A stretch of 63,210 nt of DNA, filler included, from a bacterium (lineage in GTDB: Bacteria > UBP15 > UBA6099 > JAJRTR01), in the NCBI GenBank assembly GCA_024278215.1. It is 3 parts of 3 records of this genome, joined end to end, with 100 filler letters (N's around TTAATTAATTAA, not from the genome) between each part and the next. Parts side by side here need not be neighbours in the genome. Positions count along the whole stretch, not along the records: positions 1 to 30,070 come from JAJRTR010000100.1; 2 more parts are not named here. One strand, given 5' to 3'. The notes beneath the pieces are model-generated. The model did not search any database and had not been told where the DNA came from. It saw only the letters and a list, made by a program, of their open reading frames with translations. Every line of letters begins with the position of its first letter. The stretch's first letter is position 1. A program made the position numbers and the translations under genes. Shown piece after piece: positions 1-63,087 of the stretch.

Positions 1-140
1 GAAATTGTTCAGAGCAAGGCGGAGGTGCAAAATCCTCGCAGGCGTACTTGTAGAGTACGTCGAGGACGATTTTATGCCGACAACGCAGCTATGGACAATA
101 GCAGCCGACCGCAGCAGAATCAGAATTTTGCAATTGGCTC
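1..140 (+). mobile_element. MITE family A, right part (truncated by window start)
   Basis: Matches the internal sequence of the full copies at 16108 and 51413 and ends in the right TIR AATTTTGCAATTGGCTC at 140. Confidence 0.88.
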
Positions 141-157
141 TAAGGAAGGAATAGGAA

Positions 158-3762: not shown

Positions 3763-6315
3763 ATGAGTTTTAAAAGAATGAGCTTGAAAACAAAGTTATT
3801 GCTACCCGTGGTAATCTGCGTTACGCTTGCCGCGGGCGTCACTTTTTTTCTTTTCTCGAAGATATTTTCCGACATCTTTGCGGACAACATTTCGTCATTA
3901 CAAACTTATCAGCAAAAGTCCGTGGAAGATGAATTCCGCAGCAAGACTGTCGACTACAATACATTTCTCAAACAAATAGAGAAAAAAGCACTTGAAGAAG
4001 CGTCATTGTTCTCGCAGGTTCCCGCCGTCCAGGAGGCATACGCGGTAGCTCTTCAGGGGAATATAGACGATGAAGAGGACCCGCGAACCAGTGAAGCGAG
4101 GAATATGTTGCGCAAAAGCCTGAAACCGTTTCTGAAAGGTTACGCGGCCAACAATGGGAACGAACCGTTACAGTTGCATTTTCATCTCCCGAATGCGCGC
4201 AGTCTTGTTCGACTGTGGAGAGATGGCTGGCAGACAAAACGTAATGGAAAGAAGCTCGATATTTCCGATGACATCTCCACCTTCAGGCAAACCGTGATAG
4301 ACGTGAACAGAAACAAAAAACCTCTGGCAGGTATAGAAGTGGGCAGAGGCGGTTTTGTGGTCAGAGGTCTTGCGCCGGTTGTGGACGCGCAGGGACACCA
4401 CCTTGGGTCCGATGAAGTGCTTTACCAATTCAATCCTATACTCGACATGATGAAATCTCAAAATACAGAAGCTTTCGCCGTGTTTATGGACAAGAAACTG
4501 CTTGACATCGCCACACGGCTTCAGGACGAATCCAAATATCCGGTTATCGACGATGCTTTTGTGTTCTCAGCCGCGACTGATAAACAACACATCATGGAAG
4601 TGCTTGATATCGATGTTCTGCGAAAGGGCGCAAAGGAGAATGTTTTAATTCTCAAGGGCGACCATTATTTATCTGCCTTTCCCATACTTGATTTCTCTAA
4701 AAATCCCGTCGGTGTTATGTTCATGAGCTTCGATGTCTCCAGGCAGATGAAGACCCTGGCGGAAAAGAAAAAGCAATCGGTGAAAAAGCTGCTGGAAATC
4801 AAACTTCTTCTGGGCGGCGGCATATCGGCATTCGTTCTGATCATCTCGATACTGATATATTTCAGCATAGGAAAGACAACGAGAAGAATAGAGAAATTCG
4901 GCAAAGTGGCGGAAGACATTCGAGACGGTCATATAATGAATCTCAATATTGAAAAAGAAGATGACGACGAGATAGGCAGGATATCCGATGCGTTCTCTGA
5001 AACGGTAGACAACCTCAAGAACATAGTAGGTGCGGCGGGGCGGATAGCAGAAGGCGACTTCGATGCCGAATTCGAACCGAAGGGCCGAGATGACGAACTG
5101 GTTGTGCCGCTGGAGATCATGCGTCAGAAAATAGTCGAGCTTATCACGGAGTCGAAAAGGAAGCAGTCCGAGATAGAAAAGGACAATAACTATCTGTCTG
5201 ACAATGTGGCGCGAATAATCAAAGTAATGGAATCGGTTGCGGACGGTGACCTCACCCAACGGCTCGGGGCGGATAATAAGAACAATGAAATAGGGCGGCT
5301 TGTTGCGGCGATAAACAACACGCTGGAAACCCTTGAAGACATACTGGGACAGGTGACAGGCGCAGTGGTCCAGATAAATTCCGTTGGAGCACAGATCAGT
5401 TCGAACGCGCAGAGCGTCGCTGAAGGTGCTTCCGAGCAGGCGAGCGCTCTGGAAGAGATTTCCAGCAGTCTCGAAGAAATGTCCAGCATGACCAGGCAGA
5501 ACGCTGAGCATGCGGCACAGGCGAAGACACTTTCGCAGGAGTCGATAGACATTACAAGAATCGGCGGAGACGCCATGAAGAAGATGAATCAGTCCATACA
5601 CGACATCAAGAAATCAGCCGATGAAACCGCCGGCATTGTGAAAACAATCGACGAAATAGCGTTCCAGACCAACCTGCTGGCATTAAATGCCGCTGTGGAA
5701 GCTGCTCGCGCGGGCGAGGCGGGCAAGGGATTCGCCGTAGTAGCCGAGGAGGTCCGCAACCTCGCAATGCGCAGCGCCGATGCGGCAAAGGAGACGGCGG
5801 AACTCATAAAAGGCTCGGTCAGGAACTCCGATAACGGGGTGCGCATAGCGGATGAAGTGGCGAAATCCCTTGATGAAATCTCGCATAGCACGGAGAAGGT
5901 CAACGATCTGCTCAACGAAATCTCCGCAGCTTCCAAAGAGCAGTCATTGGGTATCGAACAGGTCAACAGGGCTGTAGCAGAAAACGACAGAGTCACTCAA
6001 CAAAACACAACCGATGCCGAGGAATCGGCCAGTGCCGCCGAAGAGCTATCGGTCCAGGCCGAGCAACTTGCGGACATCATCGGGAGGTTCAAAGTCAGAA
6101 ACGACAGCTATACCGGAAGCGGAAGCGGCGCGGCGACCTCTCTGTCGGGAACAAATCATGACGCGGAAGCGCCCACCGTTGGGCTGAATCTTCCCGGAAA
6201 AGGTATCGCGTATGACGGCGGCGGCGAATGTATCAAGAAAAACGACGCCGTGTTGAAACCGGAAAGGATTATTCCGCTCGAAGACAGCGATTTCGATGAC
6301 TTCAGTGATTTCTGA
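3763..6315 (+). CDS. Methyl-accepting chemotaxis protein with Cache (dCache_3-like) sensor
   Basis: [31 protein letters not shown] motifs; HAMPs; MA tip. Start moved to ATG 3763 behind RBS AAGGAGG. Confidence 0.93.
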
Positions 6316-6342
6316 CCTGATGCGGTTTCCGCCCGACGACCG

Positions 6343-6482
6343 TGTAATACTGCACCTGCCCGGCAAGTGAATGGTGATGGAGCATACTGAATAGTATGTG
6401 ACCGATCCCGAATCGCCGCTGCAACGGGCGTAGTATGGCATTGTCGCGATTTTCCGGATTACTTGGTGAGAAATCCGGGTTA
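6343..6482 (+). mobile_element. MITE family B (ERIC-like), diverged copy with decayed left end
   Basis: GGCAAGTGA..GGAGCATACTGAATAGTATGTGACCGATCCCGAATCGCCGC core and right end GTGAGAAATCCGGGTTA shared with the 14498, 31205 and 42446 copies. Confidence 0.8.
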
Positions 6483-6584
6483 AATAATATATCCTTACCC
6501 TGTTCAAGGGTGGATACCATTTTGTGAAACGGGGGTCAAACTGCGATTTCACAATACATATTTCAAACTGGAGGTTTTTTCCAA

Positions 6585-7748
6585 ATGCGTATCAGAAACA
6601 CGGCTGTATTGCTTTTCGCAAGTTTAATATGTGCTTTTGTGTTCACGACAGCTTCAGCGGCGCAGAAAGATGATCGTGTCGACAGGCTACTAAAGCTCCT
6701 GGTCGAAAAACAGGTAATCACAGATCAGGAAGCGGATGTCCTAGCGGCCGAGATCGACACCCCGGCGGAAAAGGAACAGCCGGCGGTCAATATTGTATCC
6801 AGCAATATTAAACTTAAAGGCTTCATGCACCTCGCTTCATACTGGCGCGAAAACGATGTCACGCGCAATACCGATACATTCAGGATTCGCCAGGCCCGGC
6901 TCACTGCGTATGGTTCGCCACACCCGAACTATAAGTTCAAGATGGGATTCGCTTTCGAGCGCACCGCGCCCATTCTTCTCGACGCCGAGATCGACTACAG
7001 GTATTCCGACAGCACCACAGTCTCGTTCGGCCAGTTCAAACTGCCGCTCAGCCATGAATCAATTATCAGCGGGAAGGCTACGGACTTGATCGACCGGTCG
7101 CAGTTCATCAACCAGTTCCGCCCGTCGAACGGTCGTGACATCGGTCTGAAAATCACCCGCAAATTCGCCGGTGGCACGACATTCGAACTCGGCGCGTTCA
7201 ACGGCTCCGGCAAGAACAACCTCGACTCCGGCGACCAGGACGCACTCGTGGCGCGGGTCTCCGGCTCGTACAGAACCGGCAATCTCGAACTGGCCCCCGA
7301 GGCTGCCTATTTCATCGCACAGTCGGAATCGGGAACAGCGACACCGATAGAAAGCTCCATCATGGCCACACCGGGCTTCGCGCCCTACGATAAAAGCCTG
7401 AAGCAATTCGGACTCAGTGCGAGATACGGCAGACTCACCTACAAGACCGAGTTTATCGAAGGCAGGTTCAAGTCGAAAGATGACACTATAAATTCCGTCC
7501 GCGCCGATGGCGTATTCCATCAGCTTGGCTGGGATTTCGATTCGAGATATACACTGTTCTGGAGATATGAAACCTACGACCCGGATATGAGCACAACGAC
7601 GAATAAAGATATCGTATGGAACACTCTGGCACTGAATTATCGTGCCAGGAAAAATGTTCTCTACAAACTCAATCATCTCTGGAAGCAGGAAGCTGTCGGC
7701 AGTGAGGACAACGACGAGTTAAGAATGCAAGTGATGATAGGATTTTGA
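6585..7748 (+). CDS. Outer-membrane porin, phosphate-selective OprO/OprP-like
   Basis: Signal peptide, F.IRQARL, LLDAEIDY, FGQFKLPLS.E, GRDIG, G.FNG.G motifs; C-terminal Phe (QVMIGF). Confidence 0.8.
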   Translation: MRIRNTAVLLFASLICAFVFTTASAAQKDDRVDRLLKLLVEKQVITDQEADVLAAEIDTPAEKEQPAVNIVSSNIKLKGFMHLASYWRENDVTRNTDTFRIRQARLTAYGSPHPNYKFKMGFAFERTAPILLDAEIDYRYSDSTTVSFGQFKLPLSHESIISGKATDLIDRSQFINQFRPSNGRDIGLKITRKFAGGTTFELGAFNGSGKNNLDSGDQDALVARVSGSYRTGNLELAPEAAYFIAQSESGTATPIESSIMATPGFAPYDKSLKQFGLSARYGRLTYKTEFIEGRFKSKDDTINSVRADGVFHQLGWDFDSRYTLFWRYETYDPDMSTTTNKDIVWNTLALNYRARKNVLYKLNHLWKQEAVGSEDNDELRMQVMIGF

Positions 7749-7808
7749 ATACGACGAAACGACGTGCGCTCTCTCCAGCATGACAACAACGCGCGCGGGC
7801 AATCGGCA

Positions 7809-8285
7809 ATGACTCACGAAGTCGGCATTTCTGAAATGAAAGTTACGAGCAACCCGGAGGATACTCTTTCCACACGTTCTCTCGGCTCTTGTATCGGTGT
7901 GGCGATATTCGATCCCGAGGCCCGGGTCGGCGGCATGTTGCACTTCCAGTTGCCCGTGTCGAAAAACAACATGGATAAAGCTGCCATAAATCCATGTATG
8001 TACGGAGATACAGGCCTTGCGGCGCTTCTGAAAGCCGCCTTCGACAGGGGCGCGCGAAAGAACAGGATGCTGGTGAAGATAGCGGGCGGCGCCAGGGTGG
8101 CGGATAAAAACGGTTTCTTCAATATCGGTAAAAGAAATATTATCATCGCGAAAAAGTTCTTCTGGAAAAACGGTATTATCATCAGTGGTGAAGACACGGG
8201 CGGTGAGCACTGGAGAAACATGGCCCTGGAAGTCGCCTCGGGCCGCGTGACGGTCAGGACAAAAGAAAAAACATTCGAGATTTGA
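7809..8285 (+). CDS. cheD: Chemoreceptor glutamine deamidase CheD
   Basis: LGSCIGVAIFD, GGMLHFQLP, KIAGGA, IGKRN, EDTGG..R motifs; start uncertain (7764 or 7809). Confidence 0.93.
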   Translation: MTHEVGISEMKVTSNPEDTLSTRSLGSCIGVAIFDPEARVGGMLHFQLPVSKNNMDKAAINPCMYGDTGLAALLKAAFDRGARKNRMLVKIAGGARVADKNGFFNIGKRNIIIAKKFFWKNGIIISGEDTGGEHWRNMALEVASGRVTVRTKEKTFEI

Positions 8286-8295
8286 GGAGTTCATT

Positions 8296-8715
8296 ATGGC
8301 GTTGAACATTCTGCTTGTAGACGACTCCGGGATCATGCGCAAAATGATAGCCCGCGTAATAAACATGTCAGGCGCGCCGGTAGGTGAGATCATCGAAGCG
8401 GATAACGGCAGAGCCGGGCTCGATGCGCTGGGAAACAACTGGATCGATCTCGTCTTCACCGATCTGAATATGCCTGTCATGGACGGTGCGGAAATGATAG
8501 AACGAATGCGGGACGACGATGTCATGCGCGAGATACCCATCATTGTCGTTTCCACAGAAGGCAGCGACACGAAAATCAATAAACTGCTGAGTATTAAAGG
8601 TGTCCGCGGCTTCATAAGGAAGCCATTCGATCCCGGAGAGGCGCGAGATGTAATCTTCAAAGCAATCGGAATAGACACGGAGGCAACGGAAAATGTATCG
8701 ACAGACCCTTTATGA
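8296..8715 (+). CDS. cheY: CheY-like response regulator
   Basis: ILLVDDS..MRK, DLVFTDLNMPVMDG, FIRKPF; lies between cheD and a cheX-like gene. Confidence 0.85.
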   Translation: MALNILLVDDSGIMRKMIARVINMSGAPVGEIIEADNGRAGLDALGNNWIDLVFTDLNMPVMDGAEMIERMRDDDVMREIPIIVVSTEGSDTKINKLLSIKGVRGFIRKPFDPGEARDVIFKAIGIDTEATENVSTDPL

Positions 8716-9154
8716 AACTGCGCAACGAATATTCGAGGATGCCGCTTTCGCCCTGGTCGATCCGCCCGATGAAACAACCCGGCAAGAACGACATTTCGGC
8801 GTCGAGCTATCCGCTGTCGTCGCTTTCAATGGAGAATTTTCCGGCTTACTTGTAATCACAATTCCGCAAGAGCTGGCACGCTCGTTTGCTGCTAATATGC
8901 TCGGCATTGAAGAAGACGATCCGGCTGCCGCGCTCAAAAGCGATGATGCCGTCGGTGAGATCCTCAACATGATTTGCGGGAATCTGCTGCCTGCTGTCGC
9001 GGGCACCGGCCCCGAGTTCGACATCGGCGCTCCTTATGAAATATCGAGCTTCGATCTGGCCGGACTCCTCAAAAGACATCCGACAAAAGAAACAACAAAT
9101 GTGGAGATAATTGTGGAAGACCAGCCGGTGCAACTGGCACTGCTGCTCGATTAA
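8693..9154 (+). CDS. cheX: CheX/CheC-family phosphatase
   Basis: DAVGEILNMICGN (E-x2-N active-site motif), F.GEFSG.L; overlaps cheY. Confidence 0.8.
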   Translation: MYRQTLYETAQRIFEDAAFALVDPPDETTRQERHFGVELSAVVAFNGEFSGLLVITIPQELARSFAANMLGIEEDDPAAALKSDDAVGEILNMICGNLLPAVAGTGPEFDIGAPYEISSFDLAGLLKRHPTKETTNVEIIVEDQPVQLALLLD

Positions 9155-9377
9155 GTGCCTCGCGATACTTCCAATGAACAACCATAGCAATCCGCGAACT
9201 AAACATGACTGAACCCGCGCAAAAGCACACCGGGGAACAAAACGCTATCTGTCTCTGTTTGTCAGAATAGAAATCCCGTAGCGATTGTAAACGGACTTTC
9301 TCGCGATAAAGACGAGTGAACCCATAGTCTTTGTCCGAAACGGAATCTCAAGAATAGTTAAGAAGAGGGTAAAGAAA

Positions 9378-11459
9378 ATGACAATCGAAAAGCCAAGCTC
9401 GCGGAAAGTGAAAAGCGGCGTCGGAATCGCAGTCTCACTCGGTATCATGTTCGGCCTCATCGTCGCGTTGCTGTTTGTCAATATAGCCGGTGTGCTGTGG
9501 ATTTTCTCGCTCCAGAAGTCGGACGCGGTGAAGATCAACGTGGCGGGCAGGAACCGGATGCTGTCGCAGCGTTTCACCAAGGAGACGCTGTCGGATGTGA
9601 TGGCCGGCAGCCTGGGGAAACAGATGGAGGCCAAACAATCCGGGAAAACCCGATTCCTGTTCGAGGATTCGCTGAAAAAACTGATTCAGGGCGGTGACGC
9701 CATCATCGACCCGGCCAACGGAATTACTGCGAGCATCCCTGTCGAGAGCGACCCGGTGACTGCGGCACAACTCGATAAAGTCAACGTGTTGTGGACGGAA
9801 CTGATGGCGCAGGTCGATGTCATGCGCAGCGAGCCTGCCGGCTCGGAGGCTTTCAGGGCTTCCTGGGAGAAGGTGTCAAAACTGAATATTGATGTTCTTA
9901 AGAATATGAACACCGCTGTCGGCATGATGGTGAAAAATGCCGAGGCGAAAGGTGAGATGCTGAAAATGCTCCAGTATATTCTCGGAACGGTCTCTCTCAT
10001 AGTATGCGCATTCGTGTTTTTCTTCATCCGGCGCAAGATAACAAATCCTATAAAAGAGCTCGAGGCAGTGGCGGAAAACATCAGGGACGGCAGAATAATG
10101 GACCTTGAAATACGCGCAGGGTCCGGCGACGAGATAGGCCGGCTGGCAAACTCTATGGCGGAAACTGTGGATTCGCTCAGGGAAATAGTCAGGACGTCGA
10201 ACGAGATAGCCGCCGGAAACCTCGACGCGCAATATACGCCCCGCAGCGAGAACGACGAACTCGGCAATCCGCTCAAAATAATGCGCGACAATATTGTCAG
10301 ACATATCGAGAGCATCAAAAAGATGCGCGCCGAGATGGAGGCGAACAGTAAATACCTCGAAAAAAGTGTTCGAAAAATGATCAGCGTTATGGAAGCCGTC
10401 GCCGACGGTGACCTGACGCAGTCCCTGGAAGCCGAAAAGGATGACGATGTCGGGAAACTTGCCGGGCAAATCAACTCCACCGTGAAAAGCCTGCATGATC
10501 TGGTTGTGCAGGTAACGGAAGCCGTGTGGCAGATACGTAACGCAAGCGACGATATAAGCGGCGGGGCACAGAACGTCGCCGAAGGCGCTTCCGAGCAGGC
10601 AAGCATGATGGAAGAGGTGTCCAGCAGTCTCGAAGAGATGTCGAGCATGACAAAACTGAATGCCGAAAACGCTTCCATGGCACAGGTGCTGGCAAAGGAA
10701 TCTTCTGAAAATACAAAGAAAGGCGCCGGGGCCATGACGCGCATGAATGACGCTATCCGCAAGATCAGAAAATCCTCTGATGAGACCGCTTCAATTGTAA
10801 AAACAATAGACGAGATTGCTTTCCAGACAAACTTGCTCGCCCTGAACGCCGCTGTCGAAGCCGCCAGGGCGGGCGAAGCCGGCAAGGGGTTCGCGGTGGT
10901 TGCCGACGAGGTGCGAAGCCTCGCCATGAGGAGCGCGGAAGCCGCGAAAGACACTACTGATATGATCCAGGAATCCGTTAATAATTCGGAAAACGGCGTG
11001 CTTATCGCAAACGAAGTAACTGAATCACTGCGTGAGATCGAGGAAAGCGGCGACAAGGTCAATAATCTTATCGCCGAAATCGCTGCCGCTTCCAAGGAGC
11101 AGGCGCTCGGCATCGAACAGGTCAACATCGCGATGAACGAAAGTGACACAGTGACCCAGAAAAACGCTTCGAGCGCGGAAGAATCCGCAAGTGCCGCCGA
11201 AGAACTCTCGGCCCAGGCGGAGCAGCTCGCGAAAATTATCGGAAGCTTCAAAGTAAGACAAAATGAGTTCGCCGCCGGCGGCAATCCTGCCCCTGCACTG
11301 CATCAAGGCCCCATGTCGAATGCAACCACTGGTTCCTTTCATAATATCATCGGCCCCGCACACAGCGATATGAAAAGTCGAAAAACACCTTTATCTCGTT
11401 TACCTGATACAGGACTATCAGCAAGCGACGAAAAGTTTGATGACTTCAGAGATTTTTGA
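9378..11459 (+). CDS. Methyl-accepting chemotaxis protein with NarX/PilJ-type sensor
   Basis: [17 protein letters not shown] motif after TM1; HAMPs; MA tip. Confidence 0.93.
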
Positions 11460-11628
11460 TCATGGCCGAATGAATTTGCCGACTCAGGGGTTGGGTAGAA
11501 ATATGATGGAAATTCAGGTGCGCAACGGTTCGGCTTCGTTACTGTTGTTGTCGGGGTCTGCCGGGTTTTCGTTCAGGCACTATTCAGTCGGCGTGATCGA
11601 CAGAGGGTGCGTCGCGTGTCCTGCGGAC

Positions 11629-11657
11629 TTGAAAAATCGCGCGGCATCCTTTATTCT
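11629..11657 (+). promoter_or_regulatory. Putative sigma70 promoter of the oxidoreductase operon
   Basis: TTGAAA-17 bp-TATTCT, about 54 bp upstream of the ferredoxin-subunit ATG. Confidence 0.5.
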
Positions 11658-11710
11658 TTCCTGATGCTCCCGCGGGAGCATTTCAATCCATCGGGCGGGA
11701 AACAGTAAAG

Positions 11711-11920
11711 ATGGCTTATGTGAAAATCAACAAAGACAGGTGCAAGGGCTGCGGCCTGTGCATACAGAACTGCAAGCTGGCGCTGCTTGTTATTGTCGAG
11801 GACGAACTGAACGTGCTGGGCTATCACCCGGTGGGTTTTGTCGACGGTGAGGGCGAGTGCAAGGGCTGCAAATTCTGTGCGGAGACATGCCCCGACTGCG
11901 CTATAGAAGTTTACAAATGA
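11711..11920 (+). CDS. 2-oxoacid:ferredoxin oxidoreductase delta subunit (2x[4Fe-4S] ferredoxin)
   Basis: Two CxxCxxCxxxC motifs; first gene of the operon. Confidence 0.92.
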   Translation: MAYVKINKDRCKGCGLCIQNCKLALLVIVEDELNVLGYHPVGFVDGEGECKGCKFCAETCPDCAIEVYK

Positions 11921-11977
11921 CACACCACCCTGCCATGCGTGGCGCGGCGGGTGAGACCTTTTTTTGGACCAGTGACC

Positions 11978-13033
11978 ATGGAAAGAAGAATGATGAAAGG
12001 CGCGGAGGCGATAGCGGAAGGTGCGATTCATGCCGGTTGCCGTTTTTATTTCGGCTACCCGATCACCCCGCAGAACGATATACCGGAATACCTCTCGAGA
12101 GAACTGCCGAAAGTGGGCGGCACGTTTCTGCAGGCGGAAAGCGAAGTGGCGTCTATCAACATGCTGCTGGGCGCGTCCGCGGCGGGAGCGCGTGTGATGA
12201 CATCGTCGTCCGGTCCCGGCATTTCGCTCAAGCAGGAGGGCATCTCGTACCTTGCGGGCTCGGAGCTGCCCGGTGTGATAGCCTATGTGTCGCGCATCGG
12301 CCCCGGCCTCGGCGGTATCGCCGCCACACAGGGCGACTACAAGCAGGTGACCGCGGGCGGCGGACACGGTGATTACTATACTATCGCCCTGGCGCCTTCG
12401 TCTGTACAGGAGATGTTTTCGCTCACAAAACTGGCTTTCGATCTCTCCGACAAGTACCGAAACCCTGCTATCGTACTGGCCGACGCGATCCTGGGCCAGA
12501 TGAAAGAACCTGTCGAGATCGGCGAGCGGCCCGCGCTCGAAGATATCGAGATGCCCGAAAAACCATGGGCGCTCACAGGTGCCGAAGGACGCGACGCGCA
12601 ACTCGTGAAATCCCTCTTTCTGGGCGACGGCGAGATGGAAGTGCAAAACTGGAAACTTTACGACAAGTATGAAAAACTGAAAAAAGAAGACACATATTAC
12701 GAAGAACTGCAACTTGAGGACGCAAGGCTGATGATCGTCAGCTTCGGATCGTGCTCGCGCATGGTGCTCAGCGGCATCGAGATGGCGCGCGCGGAGGGAC
12801 TCAAGGTCGGACTGCTCAGGCCGATTTCCATCTATCCATTCCCGGAAGAAGCCGTCCGAAAAGCGTCGGAAGCGATAAATAAAGTCCTCGTGATCGAGAT
12901 GAACACTGGCCAGATGGTCAAGGACGTGAAGGTGTCGGTAGACCGCGCGGCGGACGTGCATTTCTATGGCCGCCCCGGCGGCGGGCTCCCCACACCGGAC
13001 GACATACTTGCGGAAATAAAAAAGGTATATTGA
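11978..13033 (+). CDS. vorB: 2-oxoacid:ferredoxin oxidoreductase alpha subunit (VorB-like, 3-methyl-2-oxobutanoate dehydrogenase family)
   Basis: [38 protein letters not shown]; start set at ATG 11978. Confidence 0.9.
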
Positions 13034-13034
13034 T

Positions 13035-13811
13035 ATGACAACAGAGGCAAAAGACAAACCGAAAAAAGTGTACGGCAGACCGGAATCGCTCAAGGATGTC
13101 GGATTCCACTTCTGCCCCGGCTGCAACCACGGCAACGTGCATAAGATGGTGGCCGAAGCCATCGACGAGTTCGGCGTGCGCGAGAAAACCATCGGCGTGG
13201 CCGGTGTCGGTTGCGGCGTGTTTCTTTACAACTACATTGACATCGACGTGCTGGAAGCGCCTCATGGCCGCGCCTGCGCGGAGGCGACAGGCGTCAGCCG
13301 CGTGCATCCCGACCATGTCGTGTTCACATACCAGGGCGACGGCGACCTCGCCGCAATCGGCATCGCGGAAACCATCCACGCAGCCAACCGCGGCGAACAC
13401 ATCACCGTGCTTTTTGTCAACAACACGGTATATGGGATGACAGGCGGCCAGATGGCGCCGACAACACTGCTGGGCCAGAAGACGACAACATCGCCCTATG
13501 GACGCGAGTTCATGGGCGAGGGCTACCCGATAAAAATGGCGGAGATGCTCGCCACGCTCGAAGGCACGGCATTCGTAGCGCGTGTCGCGTGCAATACCCC
13601 GAAAAATATCATGGCCGCCAAACGCGCGATCAAGAAAGCGTTCAAGATGCAGATCGACAAGATGGGCTTCACCTTCGTCGAGATACTCTCGGCATGTCCC
13701 ACCAACTGGGGCATGGACGCCGTCACTGCGAATAAGCGCGTGGAAGAAGAAATGATACCATATTTCCCGCTGGGTATTCTCAAAGAACGCACCACCGCCG
13801 ACTATCTGTAA
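13035..13811 (+). CDS. 2-oxoacid:ferredoxin oxidoreductase beta subunit (TPP-binding)
   Basis: [36 protein letters not shown]. Confidence 0.93.
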
Positions 13812-13826
13812 GAGAGGGAACGGGCA

Positions 13827-14375
13827 ATGTACCACGATGTGATAATGGCAGGATTCGGAGGGCAGGGCATATTGCTGATAGGCGACATGCTGGCCCAGGC
13901 CGGAATGATAATGGGACTGAACGTGACATGGATGCCGTCCTACGGCGTAGAGATGCGCGGCGGCACGGCCAACACAACGGTTGTCGTCTCAGACAAACGC
14001 ATCGGTTCGCCGATTACCGGCAGACCCTTCAGCGTCATCGCCATGAACGGCCCGTCTCTGGAAAAGTTCAACACTTGGGTGCGCCCGGAAGGCCTTATTA
14101 TTGCCAACACTTCAATGGCGGACAAGTCGATCGTAAAGCGCGACGACGTGGACGCCGTCTTCATGCCCTGCCTGGAACTCGCCGTGGAAGTGGGCGCGGA
14201 CCGTGCCGCAAGCATGACCGCACTCGGCGCTTACGTCGAAAAAACCGGCGTCGTCACCATCGACGCGCTCGGCAAGGCTCTCGAGTCCTACCTCACCGGC
14301 AAAAAAGCTAAGTTCATCCCCATGAACAAAGCCGCCATCGAACGTGGCGCACTGTTCGCGCGCGAAGGCAAATAG
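13827..14375 (+). CDS. 2-oxoacid:ferredoxin oxidoreductase gamma subunit
   Basis: AGFGGQGIL, PSYG.EMRGGTAN motifs. Confidence 0.93.
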   Translation: MYHDVIMAGFGGQGILLIGDMLAQAGMIMGLNVTWMPSYGVEMRGGTANTTVVVSDKRIGSPITGRPFSVIAMNGPSLEKFNTWVRPEGLIIANTSMADKSIVKRDDVDAVFMPCLELAVEVGADRAASMTALGAYVEKTGVVTIDALGKALESYLTGKKAKFIPMNKAAIERGALFAREGK

Positions 14376-14497
14376 CAACCGAACCCGCGAAAATGCGCGA
14401 GATTTCATTCTGCAACCGTATTTAAGTGCAATGTGTCGGGCCTGGTCGAGTCAAGTACATACCCACCATAAGCGTTATACCGTCGCTATCGCGCAAC

Positions 14498-14678
14498 TAT
14501 CCTGCATATTTCACCAATGCGGGCTCAAAATCAGGAGAATGCCTGTAATACAAGGCGCGGCAAGTGAGTGGTGCGGGAGCATACTGTTAGTATGCGACCG
14601 ATCCCGAATCGCCGCCGCAACGCAGTAGAATAGGCGTTATCCCGATTTTCCGGATTTCTTTGTGAGGAATCCGGGCTA
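14498..14678 (+). mobile_element. MITE family B (ERIC-like), full-length, TA-flanked
   Basis: TA-TCCTGCATATTTCACCAA ... TTTGTGAGGAATCCGGGC-TA imperfect TIRs; complete core CAAGGCG...CAACGCAG at 14551-14625. Confidence 0.88.
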
Positions 14679-15993
14679 TCCTGAAAAGTCCGCATGTATA
14701 AGAAATTACGGGGTCCCCGGAGCCGCGCTCTATGGATACACCCCGCACGAGAGGACCGACATTGTATCTTTCTATCCGCCTGCCGGTTCGCGTGTCGAGC
14801 ACATCGACGGACCCGTCGAAATAGTTGCCGCACACGAGTTTGCCGCGTGCCGTATCGAGCGCAATGTCGCGCACTCCATAGCCTGCTTTCAATTGCCGCA
14901 CGATCACCATTTTTTCTATATCGACAACGGCAACGCGGCCACTGAGCGGACGCGAGACGTAAGCCAGACCTGCGGAGCTGTCCACACGGACATTAAACGC
15001 GGAAGGTGGAAGCAGGAGTTTGCTTACCGCGCCGCCGCGGAGGTCGACACGGTGCAGATACAGTCCGGCCCAGTCGGAAACGAGAGCATAGCCGCGTTTT
15101 TGATCGACAGCCACCGAATATGCGACCCCCGCGCCCAGCGGAATCCGGCGTTTCAGGCTGTAGTCTTCGCCCGACATCACAAAAAGTTCGTGCTTCATTT
15201 CGCCTGTGAGCGCCACGTCTCCGGTTTTATACTCCACGTCCGCCCCGATCAGCCCCCGTGCTCCGGGCACCCCGGCATAAGTTGTAATCTCGAAAGGTCT
15301 CAGCGTTGCGACAGCCACGAGATTCGTGCCGCGAAGCGGGAAGTAAACCCTGTTTCGGCGCGGGTCCGCCGCTATCTGCTGGGGATTGCCGCGCACTTTG
15401 TAATAGTCGGCCCTGCCTGCGCAGTCGACGACCCCGATTTTCCTTTCCATACTGTAACACGCGATCACCGGACAACCGCCGGGAGCGACATAAATGCCAT
15501 AAGCGTTTTTATGCGAAGGAAGTCTTTGAAGCGAAAAATCCGCCTGCCCCGCGATGCTGCCCCGCGCCTCGCAACGGTTGAATCCCGCGTCGCCTCTCAA
15601 AGGCACTGATACGGCGAATCCAGCCGTGACCGACAGTATCGTCAACCATCGAAAAACCGGCCACCACCGCCTCTTCATAAACAGTAAGACACATGACGGC
15701 AGAACCACTGCCGCGAAAGCAACTGCTATCGTCCACGGTCTGTAAAGATAACCACCCGCGCCGAACGGAATGTTGATGATGCACAGAGCGAAAAGCATTT
15801 CGCAAACTGCCCGCCACGGCCTGCGCCCGTAAGCAAAAAACACAACCCCCGCCACAACCAGCGGCACACCGAGCGCAACCCAGCGAGGCACAAAGTAGCT
15901 GAATGCCGCCAGTGCGGCATGTAAAGCGATCACTGCCGTGAGCAGCAGTGTACCGATGATGCGCAGTTTGCCGATGGTTTTATTTTCCTTCAT
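14587..15993 (-). CDS. Membrane-anchored YncE/YVTN-like beta-propeller protein; C-terminus encoded by MITE B
   Basis: Several N-terminal TM helices followed by propeller-like repeats (G.GVRDIALD, V.VLD..TG, VGPLVRGVSI). Confidence 0.75.
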   Translation of the reverse strand: MKENKTIGKLRIIGTLLLTAVIALHAALAAFSYFVPRWVALGVPLVVAGVVFFAYGRRPWRAVCEMLFALCIINIPFGAGGYLYRPWTIAVAFAAVVLPSCVLLFMKRRWWPVFRWLTILSVTAGFAVSVPLRGDAGFNRCEARGSIAGQADFSLQRLPSHKNAYGIYVAPGGCPVIACYSMERKIGVVDCAGRADYYKVRGNPQQIAADPRRNRVYFPLRGTNLVAVATLRPFEITTYAGVPGARGLIGADVEYKTGDVALTGEMKHELFVMSGEDYSLKRRIPLGAGVAYSVAVDQKRGYALVSDWAGLYLHRVDLRGGAVSKLLLPPSAFNVRVDSSAGLAYVSRPLSGRVAVVDIEKMVIVRQLKAGYGVRDIALDTARGKLVCGNYFDGSVDVLDTRTGRRIERYNVGPLVRGVSIERGSGDPVISYTCGLFRIARIPHKEIRKIGITPILLRCGGDSGSVAY

Positions 15994-16107
15994 TACCAGT
16001 GCCTTTTCAAATATTATATGGTTGTGTGCTGTTCCTCATTAACTGTTTGAGATATTCTATGAATCGATTACACACATGTCCAAAACAAATAATACTCATA
16101 GCCTTGT

Positions 16108-16285
16108 GAGCCAATTGCAAAATTATGTTCATAGCGAGGTCGAGCGAAATTGTTCAGAGCAAGGCGGAGGTATAAAATCCTCGCAGGCGTACTTGTAGAG
16201 TACGTCGAGGACGATTTTGCGCCGACAACACAGCTATCGACAATAGCAGCCGATCGCAGCAGAATCAGAATTTTGCAATTGGCTC
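16108..16285 (+). mobile_element. MITE family A, full-length, TSD TTGT
   Basis: Perfect 17-bp TIRs GAGCCAATTGCAAAATT/AATTTTGCAATTGGCTC flanked by TTGT on both sides. Confidence 0.92.
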
Positions 16286-16595
16286 TTGTGTTAATAACTG
16301 AACTTCTGCGTTTTCTATAGAAGGCAGTACCATGTCAAGAAAGAAAAGATGTAAGATGGGGTGTAAAAACTTCCAGCGACATTACAAGCCTGACGTGACA
16401 GTAGTAGTATTTCTGGAGATACGATCCGGAATTGAGATGCAAATTCAAGTCATGTCCCTCAAATCCTCACTTGATTTTGAAAAACGCACAAGTCAAGTTA
16501 ATGATAGAAATAAGGACGGTATAGTGTGAAAAGGCGTTTTTACATTAGAATAGTTGTGTGTTTGTTCGACATTGTTTTTTAAAAGCGGCGGTTTT

Positions 16596-18455
16596 GTGGA
16601 AAAGACAGAAGAAATAACGGTTGAGTTTCCAGGTTGCGGGAAGAGTGTGCGTGTACGTGCGGGCGGCACGGCGTTCCGGGCGCTGGCGAAGGCCGGTGTC
16701 GGGATTCAGGCGGAATGCGGCGGCAGGGGCAAGTGTGGGAAATGTAGAATTCGCGTCGAGGGTGTGGCCGACCCGCTTACCGAACTGGAGAAGGCCCTGC
16801 TTTCCGCTGAAGATGCGGATTCCGGTGTGCGGCTCGCGTGCCTGTGCAAACTTTGGTCGGATTCGACAATCTCTGTGGAAACGCCTTCTGCAAACCTTGA
16901 TATTGCTGATTACCCTTTTGTTTTCAGAGCCGCGCCGGGTTTCGTTGTCGATAGCGCTTTGAAGGCAATAGGTCTCGACCTCACACCGCCCGGCGGGCAG
17001 GACAGACGTGCCGACCTTAGAAGAATTACAGATGCCCTGCCCTGCCCTGCGACGGGATCACTGTCGCGCCGGTCTCTTTCGGCACTTGCGGAAATTATAA
17101 GAAAAAACGACTTCAAAGTGACTTCTTATGTCGATGCCGGAAGGCTTTTGGAAGTAACTTCCGAAACGGCGGCAGGCGGTCCGTTCGGCGCGGGGATAGA
17201 TGTCGGCACTACTTCGATCTGCGTTTCTATCGCTGATCTATCGACCGGAGAGATCGTTGCTTCCGCCATGTCGATGAATCCACAGCGAATGTACGGCGCG
17301 GATGTGGCTTCGCGAATAAATTTTGCTAAAACGGAACGGAACGGACTGGAAAAACTCAGAAGGCTTGTCATAGACAAGGTGCAATCGTTAATAGAGTATG
17401 CCGCAGCCGGGGCGGGCATCGGTCCCGATGAAATAAGAAAGCTTACGCTGGTGGGGAATCCGACGATGACGCACATTTTTCTTGGTGTTGATCCCGCCTG
17501 GATCGCACCGGCGCCCTATATCGCACCGACGACGACGCTGCTTGATTTTCGTGCGTCCGACATCGGAATAAAAATCGGCGGCGGCGCGCGACTCAGCATT
17601 CTGCCCGCGGCGGCGGCATATATCGGAGCCGACGCACTTGCCGCCGGTCTCAGAATGAGGCTGCACGAAAGCGGCGCGACACGGCTGCTGATAGACCTGG
17701 GAACAAACGCCGAGATACTGCTTTCCATCGGCGATACAATATATGCGTGTTCGGCCGCCGCAGGCCCGGCGCTCGAGGGGGCGCATATAAAATGTGGAAT
17801 AACCGCGCGGTCGGGCGCAATTTCAGAAGTGCTCATCGACGATACAGTCCATATAAAAACAATCGACAACGCCCCTCCTGCCGGTCTATGCGGCACAGGG
17901 CTACTCGACTCGATCGCCGGTTTGCTCGAAAAAGGCATCATAAACCCATCGGGCAGGCTCGGCTCGGAGATACCGGACCACCTGCCTGTCGAGTTGACAG
18001 ACAGGCTCATCCCCGCCGGCCCGGACACGGAATACACGCTGACCGCCTCGGACAGCAGTTCCACAGGCAACGCAATCGTTTTGACCCAGAAGGATGTTCG
18101 TGAAGTGCAACTCGCAAAGGGGGCGATAAGAGCCGGTGTCGAATTCCTTCTCGAAGAAGCAAACCTATCGCTCGACAACATTGACAAAGTGTATCTTGCC
18201 GGCGCGCTGGGTACCCATCTGCGGCCCGGGAGTGTGCTGCGCGTCGGACTGCTCCCGCCTGTCGCTCCGGAAAAGATTTCTTTCGTCGGCAATGCCGCAC
18301 TCGACGGCGCGCTCGAAGCACTTCTTTCCGAAGACATTCTCCGCGCCGCCGAAGCCTTCGCTGATAAGATACACTACATCGAATTATCCGCCCTGAAATC
18401 ATTCACCGACAGATTTGTTGAATCCATGAGATTCTCAACAGGCGTCGGGACATAA
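16596..18455 (+). CDS. ASKHA-family reductive activator of corrinoid proteins (RACo/DUF4445) with N-terminal [2Fe-2S] domain
   Basis: CGGRGKCGKC...RLAC, GIDVGTTS, NPQ..YGADV.SRI, DLGTNAEI, AAGPALEG, QLAKGAI; GTG start assumed. Confidence 0.9.
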   Translation: MEKTEEITVEFPGCGKSVRVRAGGTAFRALAKAGVGIQAECGGRGKCGKCRIRVEGVADPLTELEKALLSAEDADSGVRLACLCKLWSDSTISVETPSANLDIADYPFVFRAAPGFVVDSALKAIGLDLTPPGGQDRRADLRRITDALPCPATGSLSRRSLSALAEIIRKNDFKVTSYVDAGRLLEVTSETAAGGPFGAGIDVGTTSICVSIADLSTGEIVASAMSMNPQRMYGADVASRINFAKTERNGLEKLRRLVIDKVQSLIEYAAAGAGIGPDEIRKLTLVGNPTMTHIFLGVDPAWIAPAPYIAPTTTLLDFRASDIGIKIGGGARLSILPAAAAYIGADALAAGLRMRLHESGATRLLIDLGTNAEILLSIGDTIYACSAAAGPALEGAHIKCGITARSGAISEVLIDDTVHIKTIDNAPPAGLCGTGLLDSIAGLLEKGIINPSGRLGSEIPDHLPVELTDRLIPAGPDTEYTLTASDSSSTGNAIVLTQKDVREVQLAKGAIRAGVEFLLEEANLSLDNIDKVYLAGALGTHLRPGSVLRVGLLPPVAPEKISFVGNAALDGALEALLSEDILRAAEAFADKIHYIELSALKSFTDRFVESMRFSTGVGT

Positions 18456-18494
18456 ACAAAGTCCCTGTGTTTTCATCCAGGCTATAATATAATA

Positions 18495-18673
18495 GAGCCA
18501 ATTGCAAAATTCTGATTCGGCTACGGTCGGCTGCGATTGTCAACAGCAGCGTTGTCGGCACAAAATCTTCCTCAACGTACTCGGCGAGTACGCCTGCGGG
18601 GATTTTGCACCTCCGCCCTGTTTCTGCAAAATTTCGTTCGACCTCGCATCGAACATAATTTTGCAATTGGCTC
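18495..18673 (-). mobile_element. MITE family A, full-length, reverse orientation
   Basis: Both TIRs intact; flanks AATA/AGTA (3 of 4 match). Confidence 0.9.
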
Positions 18674-18694
18674 AGTAGAATGAAGATAACACTT

Positions 18695-18724
18695 TAGCCC
18701 GGATTTCCCGGTGAGAGATCCGGA
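18695..18724. repeat. Solo family-B right-end palindrome
   Basis: TAGCCCGGATTTC...GAGATCCGGA resembles the CCGGATTTCT/AGAAATCCGG end hairpin of family B. Confidence 0.5.
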
Positions 18725-18780
18725 GCGTCTCGATTCCTTGATGATAAATATCGACAACATGACATCGGAGCACTAATATC

Positions 18781-19596
18781 ATGAGTGAGATAGATTTCAA
18801 ATTCGAATACGAAGCCGTGGGAAAATGTCCGCTGTGCAGGTCCGGCAACAGGGCGGAGCACCTCAGTGTTCCGATGCCGCTGGGCGGGACAGGAAAGTTT
18901 ATGCTATGCGCGGACTGCGAGCTTGTCTATCTCGACCCCGCGCCGACAGGCAGGTCGCTCAGGGAATTCTATGAACGTGTTTACACGACTGAAGAATACC
19001 GCAAGCTGGAAGGATTCAGAATACCCGACCCTGCCGATGAAATGGTGATTACATATATCGAAACAGAGAAAAAGTTCAACTTTATCGAGGACCACACCCG
19101 GCCTCCGGGCAGGTATCTCGACATCGGCTGCGCTTACGGCAACATGCTTCTCGAGGGTGGCGCGCGCGGCTGGGATGCCGTCGGAATAGAACCCTTTTCC
19201 ACCGCCGTAAATTTTTGCCGTGAAAAGCTGGGGCTTCATGTCGAACAATGCGGAATCCTTGACTCGGGCCTGCCCCGCGCAAGCCTCGACCTGATCACTA
19301 TGTATGAAGTTATCGAACATGTCGAGAAGCCGGTGCAGGTGATGAGACATGTGGCGAAACTCGCGAAGCCGGGAGCAACACTTGTGATGACGACCCCTAA
19401 TCCGCTAAGTCCGCTCGTCCGGATAATCAATGAAAACTGGATAGGCTGGAAGCCCCCGACACACCTGTGCCTTTTTTCCTACGACTCACTGCGCTATCTG
19501 CTGAAACGCACTGGCTGGGAACCTGTCCGCCTCAAAGCATCCGGTACTTATCCCGGCCAACTGCTTGCAGTAGCGAAACGCGCGGGGGCTTCATGA
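18781..19596 (+). CDS. Class I SAM-dependent methyltransferase with N-terminal Zn ribbon
   Basis: CPLC...CADC, LDIGCAYG, EVIEHV, TTPN motifs. Confidence 0.88.
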   Translation: MSEIDFKFEYEAVGKCPLCRSGNRAEHLSVPMPLGGTGKFMLCADCELVYLDPAPTGRSLREFYERVYTTEEYRKLEGFRIPDPADEMVITYIETEKKFNFIEDHTRPPGRYLDIGCAYGNMLLEGGARGWDAVGIEPFSTAVNFCREKLGLHVEQCGILDSGLPRASLDLITMYEVIEHVEKPVQVMRHVAKLAKPGATLVMTTPNPLSPLVRIINENWIGWKPPTHLCLFSYDSLRYLLKRTGWEPVRLKASGTYPGQLLAVAKRAGAS

Positions 19597-26705: not shown

Positions 26706-26787
26706 GAGCCAATTGCAAAATTATGTTCGTGGCGAGACTGAACGATTGCAGCCGGACACGGCGGAATCAGGATTTTGCGATCGGCTC
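26706..26787 (+). mobile_element. MITE family A, internally deleted derivative (82 bp)
   Basis: Intact left TIR joined to a degenerate right end GATTTTGCGATCGGCTC; core absent. Confidence 0.8.
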
Positions 26788-29761: not shown

Positions 29762-29933
29762 TCCCGGTCTCCAGGTGGATTCCCCCCATAGTATTCAGAG
29801 CTGTTCTCCCGCTGTCCACAAATTCAATCATAACATGTTGTGAGTCACCTCGCAATTTTGCAACTGTCCCGAACATTGCGAAATCCTATTATTTTGACAC
29901 ATAGCCACTTGTTTGATATTCTTTTCTGCATAA

Positions 29934-30070
29934 GAGCCAGTTGCAAAATTATGTTCGAAGCGAGGTCGAGCGAAATTGGTCGGAAGCAAGGCGGAGGTGC
30001 AAAATCCCCGCAGGCGTACTTGTAGAGTACGTCGAGGATGATTTTGTGCCGACAACGCAGCTGTTGACAA
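29934..30070 (+). mobile_element. MITE family A, left part (truncated at contig end)
   Basis: Variant left TIR GAGCCAGTTGCAAAATT and full core, running into the N gap. Confidence 0.88.
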
Positions 30071-30170
30071 NNNNNNNNNNNNNNNNNNNNNNNNNNNNNN
30101 NNNNNNNNNNNNNNTTAATTAATTAANNNNNNNNNNNNNNNNNNNNNNNNNNNNNNNNNNNNNNNNNNNN
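30071..30170. other. Artificial contig linker
   Basis: N-run, TTAATTAATTAA (stops in all frames), N-run; 100 bp. Confidence 0.97.
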
Positions 30171-31204: not shown

Positions 31205-31388
31205 TATCTCGCATATATTTTCACAGATGCGGGTGAAAAATCGGAAGAACGCCCATAATACAAGGTGTGGCAAGTGAGTGGTGAGGGAGCATACTGAAGG
31301 TATGTGACCGGTCCCGAATCGCCGCCGCAACGAAATAGAATGTGCGTTCACGCGATTTTCCGGATTTCTTTGTGAAAAATCCGGGCTT
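31205..31388 (+). mobile_element. MITE family B (ERIC-like), full-length, between flhA and flhF
   Basis: Both palindromic ends and core GGCAAGTGAGTGG..GGAGCATACTGAAGGTATGTGACC present. Confidence 0.85.
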
Positions 31389-39570: not shown

Positions 39571-39749
39571 GAGCCAATTGCAACATTATGTTTGAAACGA
39601 GCTCGAACGAAATTGTTCGGAAGCAAGGCGGAACTGCAATATCCCGGCAGGCGTACTTGTAGAGTACGTCGAGGAAGCTTTTATGCCGACAACGTAGCTG
39701 TTGACAATTGCAGCCGACCGCAGCCGAATCAGAATTTTGCAATTGGCTA
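39571..39749 (+). mobile_element. MITE family A, full-length, more diverged
   Basis: TIRs with one mismatch each; flanks TATG/TATA. Confidence 0.88.
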
Positions 39750-42445: not shown

Positions 42446-42626
42446 TGCTCCGGATTTATCACAAAGAAATCCGGAAAATCGGAAGAAGCCTATTCCACTG
42501 CGTTGCGGCGGCGATTCGGGATCGGTCACATACATGACAGTATGCTCCATCACCACTCACTTGCCGCGCCTTGTATTACAGGCATTCTCCCGATTTTTGG
42601 CCCGTATTGGTGAAATATGCGGGTTA
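42446..42626 (-). mobile_element. MITE family B (ERIC-like), full-length, reverse orientation
   Basis: Reverse complement of the 14498 copy; terminal GGGTTA overlaps the TAA stop of the minus-strand gene. Confidence 0.88.
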
Positions 42627-51412: not shown

Positions 51413-51591
51413 GAGCCAATTGCAAAATTATGTTCGAAGCGAGGTCGAACGAAATTATACAGAAGCAAGGCGGAGGTGCAAAAACCCCGCAGGCGTACTT
51501 GTATAGTACGTTGAGGAAGATTTTGCGCCGACAACGCAGCTATGGATAATTGCAGCCGACCGCAGCCGAATCAGAATTTTGCAATTGGCTC
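51413..51591 (+). mobile_element. MITE family A, full-length, TSD TAAT
   Basis: Perfect TIRs flanked by TAAT on both sides; lies between truB and ribF. Confidence 0.92.
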
Positions 51592-57753: not shown

Positions 57754-57829
57754 CGGAGTGTAGCTCAGCCAGGTTTAGAGCGCTGCGTTCGGGACGCAGA
57801 GGCCGGAAGTTCGAATCTTCTCACTCCGA
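57754..57829 (+). tRNA. tRNA-Pro(CGG)
   Basis: Acceptor CGGAGTG/CACTCCG, anticodon arm CTGCG-TTCGGGA-CGCAG, T arm GGAAG-TTCGAAT-CTTCT. Confidence 0.95.
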
Positions 57830-57897: not shown

Positions 57898-57955
57898 TAT
57901 CCCGCATATTTCACAAATGCGGTTTCCCGGATCTCTTTGTGAGAAATCCGGGTTA
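57898..57955 (+). mobile_element. MITE family B, internally deleted derivative (58 bp, ends only)
   Basis: TA-TCCCGCATATTTCACAAATGCGG fused directly to CCGGATCTCTTTGTGAGAAATCCGGGT-TA. Confidence 0.82.
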
Positions 57956-59717: not shown

Positions 59718-59766
59718 GAGCCAATTGCGGTCGAACACGGCAGAATCAGAATATTGCAATTGGCTC
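59718..59766 (+). mobile_element. MITE family A, minimal derivative (49 bp)
   Basis: GAGCCAATTGC ... CAGAATCAGAATATTGCAATTGGCTC; flanks AGTG/TGTG. Confidence 0.78.
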
Positions 59767-60031: not shown

Positions 60032-60131
60032 NNNNNNNNNNNNNNNNNNNNNNNNNNNNNNNNNNNNNNNNNNNNTTAATTAATTAANNNNNNNNNNNNN
60101 NNNNNNNNNNNNNNNNNNNNNNNNNNNNNNN
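60032..60131. other. Artificial contig linker
   Basis: N-run, TTAATTAATTAA, N-run; 100 bp. Confidence 0.97.
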
Positions 60132-62910: not shown

Positions 62911-63087
62911 GAGCCAATTGCAAAATTCTGATTCGGCTACGGTCGGCTGCAATTGTCAACAGCTGCGTTGTCGGCACAAAATCATCCTCGACGTTCTACA
63001 AGTACGCCTGCGGGGATTTTGCACCTCCGCCTTGCTTCCGACCAATTTCGCTCGACCTCGCTTCGAACATAATTTTGCAACTGGCTC
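62911..63087 (-). mobile_element. MITE family A, full-length, reverse orientation, TSD GTGT
   Basis: TIRs (one mismatch) flanked by GTGT on both sides. Confidence 0.92.

Follow-up and report, generated by a model that had tools for sequence, protein, structure and literature searches.

The window, by which we mean the whole 63,210-nt stretch of DNA analysed here, consists of three contigs joined with N44-TTAATTAATTAA-N44 linkers at 30071-30170 and 60032-60131, and harbors two families of short elements which display the features by which MITEs are recognized, namely terminal inverted repeats, a target-site duplication (TSD), multiple copies and the absence of coding sequence (Table 1). Family A, delimited by GAGCCAATTGCA.../...TGCAATTGGCTC and 177-179 bp in length, is represented by seven copies bearing a common structured core and by two short forms of 82 bp and 49 bp. 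Family B, with the ends CCYGCATAT.../...AATCCGGG and a length of 175-178 bp, is represented by four core-bearing copies, one of which has no 5′ arm, and by one 52-bp form. Both lengths agree with the initial annotation, which had put the two elements at about 180 bp. The first contig join cuts a family A copy, indicating that these repeats disrupt assembly. At 158-664, the next gene beyond the truncated A copy at the window start presumably codes for a CheW-type chemotaxis coupling protein, judging by eye from its N-terminal translation, and a tRNA gene (57754-57829, 63.7 bits) is located 72 nt upstream of the 52-bp B form.

Inspection of the flanks revealed 4-bp repeats in both families. In family A they are perfect in three of the seven copies and agree at three of four bases in the other four, as anticipated from the 4-bp duplication ascribed to this family at the outset. 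Family B had been assigned a TA target signature; its duplications are instead 4 bp long, with perfect ctat/ctat and ttat/ttat pairs and two copies in which three of four bases agree. An IS630/mariner-type identity for family B is therefore rejected, as the TA duplication is absent. The short forms are internally deleted: the 82-bp A form has the trinucleotide ATT repeated at its deletion junction, and the 52-bp B form and 49-bp A form have suffered larger central deletions. Because these deletions are of unequal extent, they do not demonstrate that the module moves by itself.

Table 1. Elements of families A and B in the window; the fifth column gives exact matches to the core pattern
Element	Position	Strand	Module	Core pattern match	Flanks and remarks
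Family A	1..142	+	3-100	15-88	truncated by window start
Family B	6343..6482	+			no 5′ arm, core start degenerate; weakest model match (22 and 15.6 bits)
Family B	14501..14675	+	14539-14637	14551-14625	ctat/ctat; originally noted copy
Family A	16108..16285	+	16148-16245		ttgt/ttgt
Family A	18495..18673	-	18535-18632		
Family A, short (82 bp)	26706..26787	.			almost exactly the ~98-nt module missing
Family A	29930..30070	+	29975-30072	29987-30060	cut at contig join
Family B	31208..31385	+	31249-31347		
Family A	39571..39749	+	39611-39709		
Family B	42449..42623	-	42486-42585	42498-42573	
Family A	51413..51591	+	51454-51550	51466-51539	taat/taat
Family B, minimal (52 bp)	57901..57952	.			ttat/ttat; two terminal hairpins alone
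Family A, minimal (49 bp)	59718..59766	.			
Family A	62911..63087	-	62951-63046	62963-63034	gtgt/gtgt (+ strand reading)

The initial annotation had proposed that the two families, in spite of their different ends, carry the same core, CAAGGCG...GCRTACT...CAACGCAG, with a span of 74 bp in one and 75 bp in the other, and three lines of evidence agree with this proposal. First, the pattern CAAGGCG-N55-70-CAACGCAG yields six exact matches in the window and none in 100 shuffles. Second, the global alignment of the A core to the B core scores 9, as compared with -7.3 +/- 4.4 in dinucleotide shuffles, and a score as high is reached by only 3 of 2000 of the latter, so that the similarity is significant against shuffled controls. 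Third, a covariance model (R2) built from 59 sequences, all of them from other genomes and none from the window, retrieves from the window exactly the seven A and four B copies, at 60.3 to 15.6 bits, and nothing further at E<=1; the same 11 core copies were obtained with BLAST and covariance models. The R2 training sequences had been gathered with a pattern derived from the window's shared motifs, so that the constancy of those motifs is in part a consequence of the sampling, while the spacing of the module and its covarying helices are not. Observed core spans are 72-76 nt, with the central GCRTACT hairpin at the expected offset.

The 74-75-nt core forms the centre of a ~98-nt hairpin module. 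Its outer stem comprises about 8 bp, followed by a 2x2 loop and three further pairs, and is covarying; the bases immediately flanking the core, which had been noticed to differ in concert between the families (G..C in A, A..T in B), are part of this helix, and in a diverse set of 64 copies the same pair is GC in 29, AU in 17, UA in 13 and CG in 2. Next comes a conserved basal loop region, in which 5′ C-AAG-GCG is paired against 3′ CAA-CGC-A-G, the exact register being unsettled because this region never varies. The middle is occupied by one or two variable, covarying stems with purine-rich internal loops between them, and the apex by a GCGUAC-loop-GUACGY hairpin. A reading of the basal region as a bulge-helix-bulge, the motif of archaeal introns, was considered and set aside, since the central helix strands, as we read them, have their bulges to the 5′ side, opposite to the canonical motif. 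Also noticed were GGA motifs of the CsrA type and purine runs resembling Shine-Dalgarno sequences.

To evaluate pairing, 64 diverse module copies were aligned with MAFFT (alignment A3). Standard pairs occupy 88.2% of the pair cells, compared with 68.3% after shuffling, a value reached in 0 of 500 shuffles; the covariation score is 0.524 versus 0.168 in shuffles, and pairing falls to 28-42% when the partners are slid by 1-3 columns. The stems thus covary well above shuffled controls, as the hypothesis of a structured core demanded. The two strands are not equivalent: the basal pair of the apical stem is G-U in 37 of the 64 copies and G-C in 25, and, among the matches listed, the sense strand has the lower folding energy in 112 of 118 copies, the means being -39.9 kcal/mol for it and -31.4 kcal/mol for its complement (a difference of 8.5 kcal/mol). 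These data show that selection maintains the module on one strand only.

We then scanned one genome per species with the pattern CAAGGCG-N15-25-GCRTACT-N30-50-CAACGCAG, and found at least 118 module loci in many phyla; in the first 100 loci, a covariance model (R1) confirmed 120 matches. Judging from their record titles, the matches listed belong to Desulfobacterota, Acidobacteriota, Nitrospirota, NC10, Planctomycetota (Scalindua) and Bacteroidota, and also from Clostridia, Campylobacterota, Gammaproteobacteria, Gemmatimonadota, Bdellovibrionota and Patescibacteria. Whole-genome model searches, in which most counts are lower bounds, gave from three to at least 150 copies per genome: at least 150 in Ca. 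Scalindua, at least 140 in Desulfovibrio sp. 7SRBS1, at least 137 in a Bryobacterales genome, at least 77 in a Terriglobia genome, at least 67 in Geobacter sp. AOG1, at least 43 in an NC10 genome and at least 26 in Porphyromonas, with 6 in a member of Clostridia (Acutalibacteraceae), 5 in Halarcobacter and 3 in a 0.5-Mb Patescibacteria genome. Density reaches 31 copies in 400 kb of evenly spaced windows in Desulfovibrio sp. 7SRBS1, and 60 copies in 400 kb in Scalindua, where the windows were picked around known matches. Of 61 genomes sampled from one phylum, 23 contain a module match at E<=1e-5, a patchy distribution of the kind expected of a mobile element. A scan of viral contigs produced 11 pattern matches, some of which are due to chance, judging from their lengths.

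Two observations concern the local arrangement of copies. On C1 of Desulfovibrio sp. 7SRBS1, modules occur in head-to-tail arrays with a spacing of ~127-165 nt, reminiscent of BIME-type clusters (e.g. 2240554-2241644 and 1997407-1997760), and none were found in four windows sampled between 0.1 and 1.0 Mb. Elsewhere, the sequence 45 nt downstream of one module core resembles, by eye, the beginning of a 5S rRNA gene, and we take this copy to lie in an rRNA operon spacer.

The elements carrying the module are of several kinds. Besides those with A-type ends and those with B-type, IS1380-like ends, there are short-armed forms in Geobacter, carriers with GACGGYTTCGTAAAAAGTC ends and apparent 7-8-bp repeats, as read from the flanks, and Scalindua carriers with TAGTGTTTGAACG ends adjoining TA. 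Like family B, acidobacterial carriers combine 4-bp duplications with CCCGCAT... termini. In the Bryobacterales genome, full-length IS1380-type copies begin with CTAG|CCCGCATTTT, which resembles the B-type ends; the likeness of the family B termini is to the left end alone of these copies, which belong to that genome and not to the window's own. None of four such full-length elements contains the module, the one match found there falling outside the element. One further module match lies near an IS1380-type gene of Scalindua. As a separate observation, the NC10 chromosome contains some 25 IS1380-type transposase genes that are nearly identical (134.5 bits each), which speaks of a recent IS burst.

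The suspicion voiced at the outset, that the usual view of MITEs as deleted IS elements would be insufficient here, is borne out: the module covaries, folds on one strand and occurs in many phyla within carriers that differ in termini and target duplications, and the four elements with a B-like left end contain none. The module is a cargo of unrelated non-autonomous elements across many phyla, and not an IS remnant. The earlier proposal of a conserved functional module on different sets of ends therefore stands as far as conservation, structure and independence from the ends are concerned. Overall, we put the probability that it is a conserved, strand-specific cargo module at about 0.9.

These results also bear on a scenario in which the module has no function, its motifs being inherited from one old palindrome in which pairing was kept by hairpin-templated correction and not by selection. 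Palindromes are able to correct themselves via template switching, which lends this scenario some plausibility, and the short A and B forms are central deletions of differing size, as in unstable hairpins. Self-correction, however, would erase asymmetric loops, bulges and G-U pairs, which persist across phyla while the stems change, and the module is common to carriers with unrelated ends and different target duplications. Such an origin consequently appears improbable.

Genes adjacent to the module did not reveal a constant companion. Among 1101 ORFs near 118 listed loci, the largest cluster of related neighbors has four members, and Pfam searches with 10 neighbors returned housekeeping families such as aminotransferases, kinases, ABC ATPases and MetRS. 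Twelve loci with Y1 (HUH) transposase genes contained no module matches, and the module-rich Geobacter sp. AOG1 genome gave no Y1 match at all; identity with the REP/RAYT system is accordingly not supported, as the Y1 genes are not flanked by modules (0 of 12 loci).

At one intergenic site within an operon, the element is present in three Geobacter species, with flanks 92-94% identical. One species displays a C-G to G-C swap in the apical stem; another has compensated changes in the arms and inner stems, with ~190 nt in place of the apical hairpin, a segment that may represent a nested insertion into the loop. A neighboring site is occupied by the element in one species and by unrelated sequence in the other. 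The first site shows either long residence or repeated replacement, with pairing retained, and such same-site retention with compensated changes could reflect a local host function.

To examine orientation relative to genes, we called genes by a codon-usage score trained on each genome sample, a rough procedure with unreliable start codons. In three lineages, namely Geobacter, Desulfovibrio and Scalindua, modules adjoining a stop codon mostly have their folding strand as the template strand of the gene concerned, and the host message therefore carries the complement. In Geobacter sp. AOG1, 24 of 26 copies are antisense, one is sense and one lies between divergent genes; in Desulfovibrio sp. 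7SRBS1, 14 of the 31 copies examined lie no more than 30 nt from a gene end, 13 of them antisense and one sense; and the 60 Ca. Scalindua copies comprise 33 antisense, 10 sense and 15 between divergent genes, with two at locus edges. The bias is also visible in the diverse loci, a set of 112 from which seven loci with no trainable caller are left out, where 45 copies are antisense, 24 sense, 9 divergent, 31 at edges and 3 inside ORFs. Within the window itself, copies between co-directional genes are sense in four cases and antisense in one, and these numbers are small.

Orientation was also compared with the direction of replication. In Desulfovibrio sp. 7SRBS1, the sign of the GC skew switches near 3.03 Mb, where a DnaA-like gene is located, and near 0.55 Mb; insertion events are divided 36+/11- and 12+/47- between the two replichores (Fisher 6e-9), with the folding strand on the lagging strand. 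The same polarity is seen in 15 of 16 Geobacter matches listed, in a genome whose genes are themselves strongly co-oriented with replication. No replication bias was detected in the NC10 genome, where the 26 matches listed run 9+/6- and 5+/6- on the two replichores. In Desulfovibrio, four copies abutting lagging-strand genes obey the gene rule and violate the replication rule, and exposure during replication alone thus does not explain the orientation.

The preference for gene ends raises the question of whether the module serves as a mobile terminator of transcription, or as an insulator, and so makes insertions tolerable. Copies adjoin stop codons and sit between convergent genes, and in many carriers the outer stem is preceded by A5 and followed by T5, all of which would suit such a role. 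However, no U run follows the hairpin on either strand, T accounting for about two of the nine bases after the outermost hairpin in all sets tested, and a canonical intrinsic terminator is therefore not supported. Moreover, the main Geobacter carrier has its T run before and its A run after the hairpin, such runs are absent from families A and B in the window, the conserved bulges would be needless for a plain terminator, and copies also occur between co-directional genes in operon-like clusters. We regard a terminator or insulator role as having little chance of being correct.

The strand asymmetry of the fold could alternatively mean that the module works as RNA, either as a small structured RNA with its own promoter, antisense to its neighbors, or as an element that is recognized by an RNase or another RNA-binding protein or that cleaves itself. 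One strand tolerates G-U wobble pairs, purine-rich conserved internal loops lie beside covarying stems, and the sense orientation is depleted near gene 3′ ends in three lineages. According to a review of MITEs (PMC10969869), ERIC and Correia elements exert orientation-dependent effects on adjacent messages, through RNase E in the former and RNase III cleavage in the latter, and the depletion that we observe resembles these effects. With an RNase-recognized or self-cleaving RNA, sense copies in host messages would be harmful and would be purged by selection. On the other hand, the arms contain no convincing promoter, a sigma-70 consensus scan of window positions 6000-19000 giving at most weak 9-of-12 matches inside elements, and Rfam 15 returned no match for the module: a tRNA was the sole match in the window at gathering scores, and the cores of five loci gave none at E<=1. 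An RNA acting in host messages would also be expected to show a sense bias, the opposite of what is seen outside the window. The RNA interpretation can thus be entertained tentatively.

The function that we favor is that of a folded single strand benefiting the carrier element, rather than one exerted within host messages. This preference for an element-serving role is based on the findings that the folding strand is mostly not present in host messages, that the distribution is patchy and that a terminator signature is missing. In our preferred version, to which we attach limited confidence and about as much as to the RNA interpretation, the module would act as a single-stranded DNA hairpin whose fixed bulges would be recognized by a putative trans-acting protein, resulting in mobilization or maintenance, by analogy with attC, REP or IS608-end hairpins. 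The terminal repeats would then be interchangeable add-ons supplying extra ways to move. The orientation bias might arise if copies survive longest where the well-folding strand is least exposed, i.e. on the template strand of the neighboring gene and on the leading-strand template. Counting against single-stranded DNA, RNA is at least as usual a setting for G-U pairs and tandem G-A loops, and no partner protein was found among the neighbor genes and Y1 loci examined. The broader proposition, that a functional folded nucleic acid spanning phyla, be it a hairpin that a putative trans-acting enzyme would recognize and mobilize independently of the terminal repeats or a catalytic or protein-binding RNA, was captured repeatedly by unrelated transposon ends, strikes us as less likely than not.

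Bacterial MITEs are usually regarded as internally deleted IS elements; in the present case it is the interior that is conserved, and the ends are exchangeable. A one-strand fold with conserved bulges, present from Patescibacteria to Desulfobacterota and in up to hundreds of copies, points by its breadth to a factor or process that very different bacteria share. Given its preferred orientation next to stop codons, the module probably influences many genes at the level of expression or stability. If it does constitute a functional folded class, it would be among the most abundant undescribed structured motifs in bacteria. We found no published description of a module shared across MITE families or phyla, in a search that did not cover the supplementary repeat lists for Geobacter, and the part of the 2024 MITE review considered here (PMC10969869) mentions none. 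The “multicopy nucleotide sequences” of Geobacter bemidjiensis, which, according to Aklujkar et al. 2010 (PMC2996986), are given in the supplements of that paper, may include a module-bearing element.

Comparison with known systems shows partial similarity to several of them. In the case of IS1380 elements and their MITEs, the resemblance lies in the CCCGCAT... termini of family B and the acidobacterial carriers, with which the left ends of the full-length Bryobacterales copies agree, and in the 4-bp duplications; the four full-length IS1380-type elements, however, are devoid of the module, and family A and other carriers have different ends. The attC sites of integrons are likewise imperfect hairpins with conserved basal motifs, bulges, variable covarying stems and one active strand, and in large chromosomal integrons their folding strand lies on the leading-strand template. 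They differ, however, in having complementary R''/R' boxes (RYYYAAC/GTTRRRY), in forming cassette arrays and in depending on IntI, whereas the end motifs of the module are non-complementary and its copies are dispersed. REP/REPIN sequences are also abundant extragenic palindromes often situated downstream of genes (PMC3733652). REPs are, however, 20-40 bp long and tagged by GTAG or CGTC, while the module measures ~98 nt and does not flank Y1 genes. Finally, Correia/NEMIS, ERIC/IRU and RUP, bacterial MITEs whose interiors are structured, share with the present elements a short length, the lack of coding sequence, hairpin formation, an intergenic location and multiple copies, along with terminal inverted repeats and target duplications (PMC10969869). 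Each of them is confined to one genus or family and one type of ends, in contrast to the module, which is found between unrelated ends in many phyla.
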